A DNA stretch of 64,000 bases from a bacterium (GTDB lineage: Bacteria > Patescibacteriota > Minisyncoccia > UBA6257 > GWB1-50-10), in the NCBI GenBank assembly GCA_027310365.1, contig DAIDAY010000001.1, positions 4,142 to 68,141 on the forward strand, written 5' to 3'. Position 1 is the stretch's first letter. The number at the start of each line of letters is the position of its first letter. Shown piece by piece: positions 1,070 through 2,088 of this stretch. Made by a program: the position numbers and the translations under genes. Below the pieces are notes generated by a model. That model was not told the origin of the DNA. It was given only the letters and a program-made list of their open reading frames with translations, and searched no databases.

Positions 1070-1864
1070 ATGGACGCAACGCACCGAGTGCGTATGCGTA
1101 CTATTTCTAAGGGGATGAAATATTCTCATCTCAGTGAGACGGTATCGGTGAAGACCGTCTCGGAAAAAGGAAACGTCGGCATGTTCCACATTGAGGGGCT
1201 TTACACCGGTTACGGTACGACGCTCGGGAACGCGTTGCGGAGAGTGCTCCTCTCGTCTTTGCCGGGAGCAGCTATCACGCAAGTGAAGATTAAAAATGTC
1301 GACCACGAATTTTCAACGCTCCCCGGCATGGCCGAGGACATCGTTGAGTTTACGTTGAATCTCAAAAGAGTCAGGTTTTATTTCACGGCCGACGACCCGC
1401 AGACTCTCGCTTTGAAATTCAAAGGCGAGGGTGAAGTGACGGCGGGCGACATCGACGAGAACACGTTCGTGAGGGTTTTGAATAAGGATTTGCGCTTGGC
1501 GACCATGACGAAAAAGGGAGCCGACATGGAGGTGGAATTGGTGGTTGAAAAAGGCTTGGGATACGTCGTCGCCGAATCGAGAAAAATGGAACGGCTGTCG
1601 GTCGGAACAATCGTCCTGGATTCCATCTTTTCGCCGATTGTGCGGGTTTCTTTCGAAGTTGAAAACATGCGTGTGGGCGACCGGACCGACTACAACCGCC
1701 TGAAGCTTGAGATAGAGACGGACGGATCCATCAGCCCGTCGGAAGCGCTGCACAAAGCCGGGAACGTTTTGAAAGATCATTTCGAAAAAGTTTCAGGGGT
1801 TGAAGTGATAGTTGCCGAAGTTCCGGAAGAAAAGGAAACGAAAGCGGCGAAGAAGAAAAAGTAA
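1070..1864 (+). CDS. rpoA: DNA-directed RNA polymerase alpha subunit, N-terminal domain only; alternative start at 1115
   Basis: Alpha-NTD motifs are present ([28 protein letters not shown]...HEFS...ED, and [21 protein letters not shown] near the end). The protein stops after a Lys-rich tail with no alpha-CTD. Confidence 0.85.
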   Translation: [264 protein letters not shown]

Positions 1865-2088
1865 GGGTTCGATACGCAATCTCAAGCCGAAGGCGTAGAA
1901 ATTGCATCTATCAAACCTTACTCCCGCGCTTCATCTTCGCTATACGGGCAATTAATCCCAATGAATATCAATCAGTCGAATACAAAACCAAACACATTAA
2001 ATTCAGCCACTGTAAGTGTGGGGGTGCTCGCTATTGCAGCTAAAACTCCTGCGTTGCGGATGAGCTGGCCATTTTAGGCAATAACGGC

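Follow-up and report, generated by a model that had tools for sequence, protein, structure and literature searches.

The rpoA locus and its alpha subunit

The window, by which we mean the whole 64-kb stretch of DNA analysed, contained an operon in which Pfam matches gave the gene order S11, S4, alpha, L17, L13 and S9, that is, the conserved rpsK-rpsD-rpoA-rplQ context. The features around rpoA were as follows.

380..982, plus strand: rpsD, ribosomal protein S4, 5' of rpoA (PF00163 and PF01479)
983..1114, plus strand: rpsD-rpoA spacer, 132 nt (sequence, ORF list, gene map of the relative L081, motif comparison)
1115..1864, plus strand: rpoA, CTD-less RNA polymerase alpha subunit, 249 aa (Pfam, NCBIfam, homologues, PDB alignments, Foldseek)
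1115..1792, plus strand: alpha N-terminal domain (NTD), residues 1-226, ending ...KDHFEKV (PF01193, PF01000, AF2, Foldseek)
1793..1861, plus strand: alpha C-terminal tail, 23 aa, an acidic/Pro linker and then a Lys-rich tip (low model confidence)
2089..2439, plus strand: rplQ, ribosomal protein L17, 116 aa (PF01196)

The rpoA reading frame was open over 1070-1864, which corresponded to 264 aa counted from the first ATG. The probable start was the ATG at 1115, where the homologues begin with MKYSHLSE, giving a protein of 249 aa with its stop at 1862-1864. Thus, the length of 249-264 aa in the original prediction was accurate (ATG 1115 versus ATG 1070), and so was its gap of about 220 nt, since 224 nt (1865-2088) separated the rpoA stop from the rplQ ATG at 2089.

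The alpha NTD serves for dimerisation and as the assembly platform for beta and beta'. According to Pfam, the protein contained PF01193, the Rpb3/Rpb11-type dimerisation domain (E=1.9e-23), and PF01000, the RpoA insert domain (E=1.9e-27), and no other family; PF03118 (RNA_pol_A_CTD, the HhH domain) gave no match at E<=1. This profile search, which the original prediction had proposed, supported its reading of the protein as an alpha subunit consisting of the NTD only. The NCBIfam model TIGR02027 was matched over positions 2-227 of 298, leaving 228-298 unmatched, and the score of 247.8 bits (cut-off 227.8) placed the protein clearly among bacterial-type RpoA sequences. In PDB sequence alignments it covered residues 12-243 of the 314 residues of Bacillus subtilis alpha and 27-246 of the 329 residues of Escherichia coli alpha, a coverage which, judged from these alignments, was that of the NTD plus a tail of linker length. 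The AF2 model ended in a helix at residues 208-227 followed by a low-confidence tail, and every Foldseek match was an alpha-NTD chain (TM 0.72-0.84). The NTD was strongly conserved, with a mean column identity of 72%.

Absence of the C-terminal domain

The search for a C-terminal domain (CTD) covered the 64-kb window and flanks of up to 3 kb around rpoA in relatives. A custom CTD HMM, built from 94 CTD-bearing alphas, was run against the six-frame translation of the window and 82 related loci (573 kb), and its best match had E=1.5. No CTD was found in the window by tblastn with the E. coli and B. subtilis CTDs; the best match (E=0.027, 44253-44447, minus strand) lay inside a 488-aa serine recombinase and was attributed to chance. 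The earlier statement that the rpoA-rplQ spacer encodes no CTD peptide was confirmed by both methods in all frames. A frameshift restoring a downstream CTD, which the original prediction had named as one case that would overturn it, was likewise not found, the HMM being negative in every frame. An independent contig (L082) was 99.9% identical over 3.2 kb, spacer included, and assembly error was therefore ruled out. The natural absence of the CTD was thus confirmed for the ORF, the spacer, the 64-kb window and the 82 related loci.

Distribution of the CTD-less alpha

The comparison of rpoA length with relatives that had been suggested earlier showed a short alpha throughout. The best 120 database homologues (69-100% identity) were 245-271 aa long and had NTD domains only, while at 80 related species loci (58-83% identity) alpha was 233-294 aa long with no CTD in any frame. 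These proteins generally finished with an acidic linker followed by a tip rich in Lys. The window alpha therefore belonged to a lineage-wide type with a full NTD and no CTD, represented by the 120 homologue clusters and 80 species, and the CTD-less alpha is fixed across a large Parcubacteria/Paceibacteria clade of Jorgensen-, Brenner-, Wolfe- and Colwellbacteria-like genomes, within the candidate phyla radiation (CPR).

The most similar alphas with a CTD, in clusters of about 50% identity, came from Giovannonibacteria, the 'Parcubacteria group' and Paceibacterota. Since these were Parcubacteria as well, the CTD was lost inside that group. In a neighbour-joining tree of 131 NTDs the window clade was monophyletic on a long stem, the tree being too star-like to count independent CTD losses.

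The loss itself is not new. A single sentence in a 2021 paper (PMC8321222) already stated that Parcubacteria lack the alpha-CTD and cited Nelson and Stegen 2015. The text and supplement of the latter listed rpoA merely as a core gene and did not document CTD loss, so that PMC8321222 left undocumented how far the loss extends, that sister Parcubacteria retain the CTD, and the conserved basic/AT-hook tail. We found nothing else on CTD loss in Parcubacteria in the literature beyond that sentence, and no prior description of the conserved basic tail. A 2025 study (PMC12531629) described alphaCTD as 'ubiquitously present across all Bacteria'.

The Lys-rich tail

The Lys-rich tail predicted about 20 residues past the NTD proved to be a 23-residue acidic/Pro linker ending in KAAKKKK. 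The number of Lys and Arg residues among the last eight averaged 5.3 and was at least 4 in 116 of the 120 homologues; of 63 other ORFs in the window, 6 reached that value. Several clade members (P0118, L036, L074 and L076) had tips with the sequence KKRGRPKK, which was also terminal in the tails of clusters P0134, P0225 and P0254. The AT-hook is an HMGA-type motif (K/R-R-G-R-P-K/R) that binds the minor groove of AT-DNA. The KKRGRPKK of the relatives was identical to its canonical core, whereas the KAAKKKK of the window alpha lacked R-G-R-P. In one relative (L061) alpha ended in a C2H2-like zinc finger, and in the clade members L066, L072 and L067 the tails were short or acidic. The interdomain linkers of CTD-bearing relatives were mostly acidic or neutral.

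Judged by this pattern of sequences, the tail is not a neutral leftover and its composition is under selection. Because the tip was Lys-rich in 116 of 120 homologues and an AT-hook in some, contact with upstream DNA may persist in the clade. Namely, the flexible tip could touch DNA just upstream of the -35 region, either without sequence specificity or in the AT minor groove, and might act as a minimal substitute for the CTD. We hold this proposal with low confidence. Part of the Lys content of the tip could also stem from a demand for A-rich nucleotides close to where rplQ begins.

Several other explanations of the short protein were considered. Apart from its unusual length, nothing suggested that rpoA was an artefact or a pseudogene produced by a sequencing frameshift, premature stop or misassembly. 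The same length and architecture recurred in 120 protein clusters and 80 species, the L082 contig was nearly identical, no downstream frame held CTD-like sequence, and the conservation of the NTD argued against a pseudogene; this explanation can practically be dismissed. It was also very improbable that the CTD is encoded by a separate gene elsewhere in the genome and acts in trans. The part of this genome that was searched amounted to 64 kb, and NCBI annotates adjacent NTD (HRV32416.1, 220 aa) and CTD (HRV32417.1, 84 aa) proteins in one Paceibacterota lineage. However, we rejected this pair as a precedent, as it was an annotation artefact of a UGA-as-sense lineage whose genome had been annotated with code 11; in L083, six of seven genes contained in-frame TGA and the alpha gene was continuous (309 aa). 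No CTD signal was present in the window or in the 573 kb around rpoA in 82 relatives, and the conserved Lys-rich tail argued for a stable new C-terminus. An untethered alpha CTD would, moreover, lose the tether on which its function depends. A more serious alternative, though still an unlikely one, concerned the tail, which might be a residual linker without protein function whose AAA/AAG codons are kept as an unstructured, A-rich initiation region for rplQ. In most relatives the rplQ ATG overlaps the rpoA stop or follows within 0-20 nt, so the last rpoA codons form the upstream region of rplQ; Lys-rich linkers occurred in some CTD-bearing relatives as well (P0133, P0145, P0199 and P0228). On the other hand, the tip was still Lys-rich where rplQ starts 70-390 nt downstream (the window, L013, L015, L018, L023, L026, L059 and L074), the KKRGRPKK tips require Gly, Arg and Pro codons and form an exact DNA-binding motif, and the zinc finger end of L061 did not fit a residual linker either.

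Predicted consequences for transcription

E. coli alpha(1-235) retains dimerisation, core assembly and basal transcription and does not respond to UP elements or class I activators (PMC8321222, citing Igarashi and Ishihama 1991 and Ross et al. 1993). The window protein resembled this truncation in spanning E. coli residues 27-246. By analogy, its dimer would still nucleate core assembly through the NTD, and the polymerase would be without alphaCTD-UP-element contacts and without alphaCTD-dependent (class I type) activators; the absence of both modes of regulation, which the original prediction had also expected, is a reasonable extrapolation from the E. coli protein. In contrast to the laboratory construct, the truncation in the window is natural, clade-fixed and presumably viable, and the alpha of this clade carries a conserved Lys-rich tip.

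Other natural CTD-less alphas have been described in Candidatus Hodgkinia, Candidatus Tremblaya and the Euglena plastid rpoA (PMC8321222). The window clade resembled them in having lost the CTD and kept the NTD in a reduced genome with few regulators. Archaeal Rpo3 (RpoD) and eukaryotic Rpb3/AC40 are homologues of the alpha NTD that serve as an assembly platform without a CTD. In NCBIfam the window alpha matched RpoD weakly (E=5e-8); unlike these proteins, it passed the TIGR02027 cut-off and was encoded in the rpsK-rpsD-rpoA-rplQ context.

A structured element between rpoA and rplQ

The original prediction had described the interval after rpoA as a non-coding gap. This held in so far as it coded for no CTD, but to call it merely non-coding was inadequate, since it was occupied by a repeated structured element inserted between unrelated gene pairs. 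The copies in the window and the helices of the first copy were as follows.

1862..2091, plus strand: element copy 1, from the rpoA UAA to the rplQ AUG, both included (folding, covariance model (CM), covariation)
1864..1919, plus strand: P1 hairpin (MFE -18 kcal/mol, z=-4.5, 0/200 shuffles as good)
1921..2024, plus strand: P2 helix (10/10 pairs including G.U)
2024..2090, plus strand: P3, irregular helix of about 23 bp (CM R1 79.5 bits, E=1.4e-17; covariation; MFE of 2022-2091)
19294..19490, plus strand: element copy 2, greA stop to lysS start, 191-nt spacer (R1 59.2 bits, E=1.7e-12; P1 z=-3.8)
20931..21118, plus strand: element copy 3, lysS stop to serS start, 182-nt spacer (R1 47.2 bits, E=1.7e-9)

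At the base of P1, AAGGGUU, whose first A is the last A of the UAA stop, paired with AACCUU, and the apex was GCC-GAA-GGC; copy 3 had the P1 variant UAAGAGGUUG. P2 was formed by CUCCCGCGCU (1921-1930) and AGUGUGGGGG (2015-2024) and enclosed an A-rich loop with AUGAAU...AUCAAUCAGUCGAAU motifs and a 38-codon ORF (1961-2077). At the base of P3, GUGC (2024-2027) paired with GCAU (2087-2090), taking in the A and the U of the rplQ AUG. The MFE structure of 2022-2091 adopted P3, although P3 of copy 1 alone was no better than shuffles (z=+0.3). The fold of the whole spacer of copy 1 (z=-0.9) had likewise suggested no structure, a result superseded by the comparative analysis. An alternative local hairpin in place of P3 (structure A) was 80% paired and no better than shuffles, and the AUG-pairing structure B was the supported one.

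The comparative evidence came from alignments of 5 to 11 copies, in which covariation was strong. For P3, computed on alignment A4, 88.7% of positions were paired across copies, with double changes in 10 of 23 pairs; none of 500 shuffles matched this, and slid controls reached 27-46%. P2 was 93% paired, compared with 61+-5% when partners were permuted. Copies of unrelated sequence adopted the same three-helix MFE fold. Whole elements folded with z of -5 to -11 in other genomes, and the three copies in the window, folded as whole units, were marginally better than shuffles (z -1.0 to -1.6), copies 2 and 3 preferring a local hairpin in which the AUG stays unpaired.

Distribution and orientation of the element

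The R1 model detected three copies in the window; related loci held at least 13 others, at E from 2e-8 to 3e-20. The element measured 150-390 nt, began at a stop codon (TAAGGG in 12 of 14 copies) and ended at a start codon, and all 16 of 16 copies were co-oriented with the flanking genes. It occupied the junctions rpoA-rplQ, greA-lysS, lysS-serS, infC-rpmI, rpsD-rpoA and rplQ-rplM and junctions of pilus genes; the genes directly 3' of it also included rpsM and a xerC-like gene, and in three species it lay directly 5' of rplQ. One 6.5-kb locus (L086) contained four copies, as against three in the 64 kb of the window. An occurrence of TAAGGGTTT at 32001 was rejected as a copy, being located inside a coding ORF. 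The distribution was patchy at orthologous sites, with the element absent from the rpoA-rplQ junction of the closest relatives. Judging from this pattern, it comes and goes as a mobile sequence would; inspection by eye found neither terminal inverted repeats nor target-site duplications.

The rpsD-rpoA spacer (983..1114) was absent from the closest relative, L081. It shared a CAUGAAU...AAUCAGUCGAAAU motif with the P2 loops and had a 39-codon ORF (991-1110) with AAGGAG upstream; the spacer and the element may be related, the former having diverged.

At the gathering threshold of Rfam 15, tRNA was the sole match in the window; at E<=10, the region 1780-2180 gave two chance matches of 14 bits, the spacer itself matching no family. 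A consensus scan of 900-2500, confined for promoters to the sigma70 type, picked up nothing resembling a promoter, nor was a terminator called in the spacer. We found no prior description of the element in the literature.

Proposed role of the element

When folded, the element would bring the stop codon next to the start codon, with P1 pairing the stop, P2 following and P3 pairing the start. P3 would occlude the rplQ start codon, which has no Shine-Dalgarno sequence. Because the predicted fold juxtaposes the two codons and covers a start without its own ribosome-binding signal, we infer that the element may let rplQ stay translationally coupled to rpoA despite the insertion, or may gate that coupling.

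Ribosomal shunting is known from the CaMV 35S RNA. Like that system, the f1 gene VII-IX hairpin and E. coli rpmI-rplT, the element places the downstream start in a helix, the upstream ORF ends at the base of the structure, and the fold joins take-off and landing sites. The f1 and rpmI-rplT cases served as our models of structure-mediated translational coupling (PMC12548453). Known bacterial coupling structures are about 50-90 nt or less and gene-specific, whereas the element is a modular cassette of 150-390 nt at many junctions for which coupling is predicted.

The other readings of the interval fared differently. Its position and length (about 75 codons) would roughly suit a decayed remnant of the CTD-coding region, but this was extremely implausible, as the CTD HMM and tblastn were negative in all frames, the same element occurred between unrelated gene pairs, and the closest relatives (82-85% identity) were already CTD-less with junctions ranging from overlapping (TAATG/ATGA) to 19 nt. 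In those CTD-less relatives the junctions are TAATG-type or 1-19 nt long. The 224-nt gap has nothing to do with the loss of the CTD and represents the insertion, at this site, of a repeated three-helix intercistronic RNA element. That the element immediately precedes rplQ in three species and pairs with the rplQ start codon might indicate an rplQ-specific leader for L17 autoregulation, and in several copies an AUG-initiated ORF closed by a UAG that lies 7-12 nt ahead of the next start codon (here ORF 1961-2077, 38 aa) might indicate a small-protein gene; we considered either case highly unlikely. An L17-specific leader was ruled out by copies before lysS, serS, rpmI, rpsM, rplM, rpoA and the xerC-like and pilus genes. 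The small ORF was rejected as a gene because the internal ORF differed in frame, length and stop between copies, the conserved loop motif AGUCGAAU was read in three different frames, and in L013 the peptide was unrelated while the helix was kept. A less remote possibility, which we nonetheless rate as rather unlikely, is that the element is a selfish MITE-like DNA repeat with no role as RNA, or that it uncouples the two genes as an RNase III processing site or attenuator. The patchy presence at orthologous junctions of close relatives, the several copies per genome and the partly eroded appearance of the window copies would fit such a sequence, and RNase III typically cleaves long near-perfect helices, as in Correia/NEMIS elements. 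Against this stood the orientation of 16 of 16 copies with their genes, the span from stop to start codon, and helices of differing sequence that keep pairing; a non-rigorous look revealed neither terminal inverted repeats nor target duplications, and no terminator-like site was called. Thus orientation, stop and start boundaries and kept pairing pointed to constraint at the level of RNA and translation. On balance, it was likely that the account as a whole is correct, namely a CTD-less alpha with a Lys tail followed by an inserted three-helix element that probably keeps, or gates, the coupling of rplQ to rpoA.

ERIC/IRU, REP/BIME, the Neisseria Correia elements (NEMIS) and Rickettsia RPE are transcribed intercistronic repeats. 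The element shares with them a short length (100-400 nt), multiple copies, hairpin formation, insertion between co-transcribed genes and a patchy presence among relatives. It differs from them in being strictly gene-oriented and exact from stop to start, with both codons in helix bases, in that what its copies have in common is architecture and short motifs, not overall sequence, and in that no terminal inverted repeats were seen.

Significance

UP elements, and a large proportion of activators, dock on the alphaCTD, which textbooks and recent comparative work treat as universal in Bacteria. A species-rich clade of free-standing organisms without it, as opposed to organelle-like endosymbionts, constrains how transcription is regulated in ultra-small bacteria and offers a natural test of the CTD's purpose, and the conserved Lys-rich/AT-hook tip suggests a simple, testable substitute. 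The element, in turn, accounts for long 'gaps' and spurious small ORFs in the annotation of CPR operons and could readily be put forward as a new RNA family.

A bolder combination of the two, which we regard as doubtful, is that a Lys/AT-hook peptide replaces alphaCTD while the RNA cassette hands the ribosome from stop to start or gates this hand-over. If this were true, a tethered poly-Lys/AT-hook peptide of about 20 residues would stand in for the 80-residue alphaCTD as a generic contact with upstream AT-DNA, in a minimal bacterial RNA polymerase without activator docking through alpha. The terminating ribosome would be passed across 150-390 nt, a bacterial counterpart of ribosomal shunting, and coupling over hundreds of nucleotides would be a new way to keep operon stoichiometry after an insertion.

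Loss of the alpha C-terminal domain

The window began with the end of the alpha operon, and its genes and spacers near rpoA were as follows.

Features at the end of the alpha operon
first 3.2 kb, + strand: rpsK (truncated by the window edge), rpsD, rpoA, rplQ, rplM, rpsI
380-982, + strand: rpsD
1070-1864, + strand: rpoA ORF, 264 aa counted from the first ATG
1865-2088, + strand: rpoA-rplQ spacer, 224 nt
2089-2439, + strand: rplQ

The best matches in the protein database search were named Patescibacteria, Parcubacteria, Jorgensenbacteria (a member of the Parcubacteria group according to NCBI), Paceibacterota or Minisyncoccia. 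Since all homologues started with MKYSHLSE, the likely start of rpoA was the ATG at 1115, giving a protein of 249 aa. A second, independently assembled contig was 99.9% identical over 3.2 kb.

Pfam matches of the rpoA product were limited to the two N-terminal domain (NTD) families PF01193 and PF01000; the C-terminal domain (CTD) family PF03118 was not found even at E<=1. The product passed the NCBIfam cut-off for TIGR02027 (247.8 bits vs 227.8) but matched only model positions 2-227 of 298. When aligned to PDB sequences, it covered residues 12-243 of 314 in B. subtilis alpha and 27-246 of 329 in E. coli alpha. Its AlphaFold model (pLDDT 70.7) ended in a last helix at 208-227 followed by a low-confidence tail, and Foldseek matched this model to alpha-NTD chains of RNA polymerase only (TM up to 0.84). 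Therefore, the rpoA product is an alpha NTD with a 23-residue tail, as had been originally noted.

It had also been claimed that the rpoA-rplQ spacer gave no CTD-like peptide. A tblastn search with the E. coli and B. subtilis CTDs found no match in this spacer. An HMM built from 94 CTD-bearing alphas was searched against 573 kb in six frames (the window and 82 related loci) and had no match in the spacer, the rest of the window or the related loci (best E 1.5). The original observation was correct, and its main interpretation was reasonable.

A split alpha was rejected as a candidate. Namely, NCBI records HRV32416.1 (220-aa NTD) and HRV32417.1 (84-aa CTD) adjoined each other in one 'Candidatus Paceibacterota' lineage (L083; proteins P0124, P0278 and P0282). 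In the DNA (ENA ERZ795052 contig, 1342-2271), an in-frame TGA was located exactly after ...AQHFA of alpha, and in-frame TGA was present in 6 of 7 genes. This organism therefore reads UGA as sense (code 4/25-like), and the records had split what is in fact a normal alpha of 309 aa.

Two other regions of the window drew attention. Directly after the ribosomal protein genes, two neighbouring ORFs (3332-4300; 139 and 172 aa) were NUDIX-hydrolase-like by eye only. A tRNA-Gly(ccc) gene (43534-43607, + strand) was directly adjoined by a large serine recombinase of 488 aa, encoded on the minus strand (43596-45062); the arrangement resembled one end of a prophage or other integrated element inserted at a tRNA gene.

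Distribution of the loss

The best 120 database clusters (69-100% identity) were all 245-271 aa long with NTD domains only. Similarly, a scan using one genome per GTDB species gave 80 loci (58-83% identity) with alphas of 233-294 aa, every one without the CTD. The loss of the CTD from alpha is a fixed trait across the clade. After clustering of the library at 50% identity, the entire clade collapsed into a single representative (P0122). Its next neighbours (~50% identity) were 305-330 aa long and had the CTD; the named ones were also Parcubacteria (Giovannonibacteria, 'Parcubacteria group', Paceibacterota). About thirty further 50% clusters also lacked the CTD and had basic tails; among these was a named Parcubacteria protein (P0225). 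In a neighbour-joining tree of NTDs, the window clade was monophyletic on a long stem, and there was a second CTD-less group together with scattered singletons; the tree was star-like and did not fix the number of losses.

Three alpha homologues were about twice the normal length, with two NTD-like stretches each: P0121 (569 aa), P0123 (526 aa, Candidatus Termititenax) and P0136 (664 aa), the last additionally with two CTD matches. Tandem duplication, fusion or chimeric assembly could each account for them.

Loss of the alpha CTD has been documented for Hodgkinia and Tremblaya (PMC8321222, 2021). A single sentence of that paper, which cites Euglena plastids too, states that the loss 'is also present in Parcubacteria'; its source, Nelson and Stegen 2015, listed rpoA only as a core gene. 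The domain has also been called ubiquitous in Bacteria (PMC12531629, 2025). Because of that one sentence, the loss is already published, if thinly. Our literature search found no paper on its distribution or on the tail; what is added here is the picture at the level of the clade, together with the basic or AT-hook tail.

The basic tail

The homologues carried 22-37 residues after an invariant DHF motif. The proximal part was acidic (D+E 0.25), and the final eight residues contained 5.3 K or R on average. Of 120 homologues, 116 had at least four K/R in these eight positions; among the remaining long ORFs of the window, only 6 of 63 did. Linkers of CTD-bearing relatives were for the most part acidic or neutral. 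The tip remained Lys-rich in genomes where rplQ started 70-390 nt downstream, which argued against a purely nucleotide-level explanation. In P0118, L036, L074 and L076 from the same clade, and in P0134, P0225 and P0254 from other CTD-less clusters, the tip was KKRGRPKK, the canonical AT-hook motif. The alpha of one relative (294 aa; L061, 3001-3885) had a long tail with a Lys/Glu-rich stretch and a C2H2-like zinc-finger sequence, FICDVCGFEAKSERGLKSHKTRQHS, at the C-terminus. These features suggest that the tail may keep some contact with upstream DNA. This conserved tail, Lys-rich or with an AT-hook, is a detail that is both new and testable.

A repeated element in the rpoA-rplQ spacer

Folded alone, the spacer looked unstructured (z=-0.9, relative to shuffled sequence); it had no Rfam match, and a consensus scan revealed no promoter- or terminator-like site. 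In the closest relatives (L001, L003, L005-7, L081; alpha 82-85% identical), the junction was TAATG, ATGA or 1-19 nt, so the gap was an insertion later than the CTD loss. Two more distant species (L013, L023) had long spacers here with modules in common with the window, and RNAalifold proposed a helix (P3) that took in the rplQ start codon. A pattern search with it found the same module on three metagenome contigs, between infC and rpmI, upstream of a xerC-like gene and after pilT. Across five copies, 88.7% of P3 positions were paired, with both sides changed in 10 of 23 pairs; none of 500 shuffles reached any of five measures, and slid controls were 27-46% paired. A competing local hairpin was not supported. 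The P3 covariance model (R1) detected two further window copies.

Further copies of the element
19294-19490, + strand: copy 2, greA to lysS (E=1.7e-12)
20931-21118, + strand: copy 3, lysS to serS (E=1.7e-9)

The model also matched further copies in L017, L018, L023, L036, L039, L052 and L086. The last, a 6.5-kb type IV pilus operon contig, had four copies between pilus genes. The gap is distinct from the CTD loss and arguably the more novel of the two: a structured intercistronic element not previously described.

All copies were co-oriented with the flanking genes. The element opened with the upstream stop codon and GGGCUUK (TAAGGG in 12 of 14 copies). Hairpin P1 had a UAAGG:CCUUA base and an upper part wholly different among copies; CAAACCUUAC was located 3' of it. 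P2 followed directly as a CCCC.../...GGGG stem, whose first 10 bp were 93% paired in 11 copies vs 61 ± 5% with permuted partners. Its A-rich loop contained the short motifs CAUGA, AUCAA and AGUCGAAU, in a reading frame that varied among copies. P3 came directly after P2, and its basal GUGC paired with GCAU of ...GGC-AUG, where AUG is the next start codon. Whole elements of other genomes scored z -5 to -11 against shuffles; the three window copies were only marginal (-1.0 to -1.6). In copy 1, P1 was clear (z=-4.5), P2 (1921-1930 with 2015-2024) and P3 (2024-2090) were intact, and the internal ORF (1961-2077) was unconserved among copies.

Related sequences were seen elsewhere. In L015, P1-like hairpins (1900-2103 and 2696-2762; 83-85% identical to part of the window P1) occupied two of the intergenic regions that precede rpoA, and the modules may occur separately. 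The 132-nt rpsD-rpoA spacer (983-1114), absent from the closest relative L081, contained the element's loop motif (CAUGAAU...AAUCAGUCGAAAU) and two GC hairpins. It also had an ORF of 39 codons (991-1110) that was preceded by AAGGAG and stopped 4 nt upstream of the start codon of rpoA. The gene ending at 34661 was followed by a similar opening, TAAAGGAGTTGATG. These two may represent a second element sub-family or real small genes.

Possible function of the element

The element was patchily distributed among orthologous junctions and present several times per genome, which suggests mobility. Its strict orientation relative to the genes and its exact fit between the two codons suggest constraint at the RNA level. 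RNase III processing or attenuation sites are live alternatives for its role. No linkers separate the three helices; folding of the RNA would thus place the upstream stop codon and the following start codon at neighbouring helix bases. The downstream genes had no Shine-Dalgarno sequence, and their AUG was within predicted pairing. The same gene pairs overlapped as TAATG in relatives, a classic arrangement for termination-reinitiation coupling. In one of the two accepted coupling models, a structure that hides the start site is unfolded, and in the other, the ribosome that terminates also re-initiates (PMC12548453); an element starting in the ribosome footprint at the stop codon and ending at the start codon would be compatible with both. 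Because of these features, our preferred reading is that the fold would preserve or gate translational coupling between the neighbouring genes, and would in this way allow the insertion to be tolerated or exploited.
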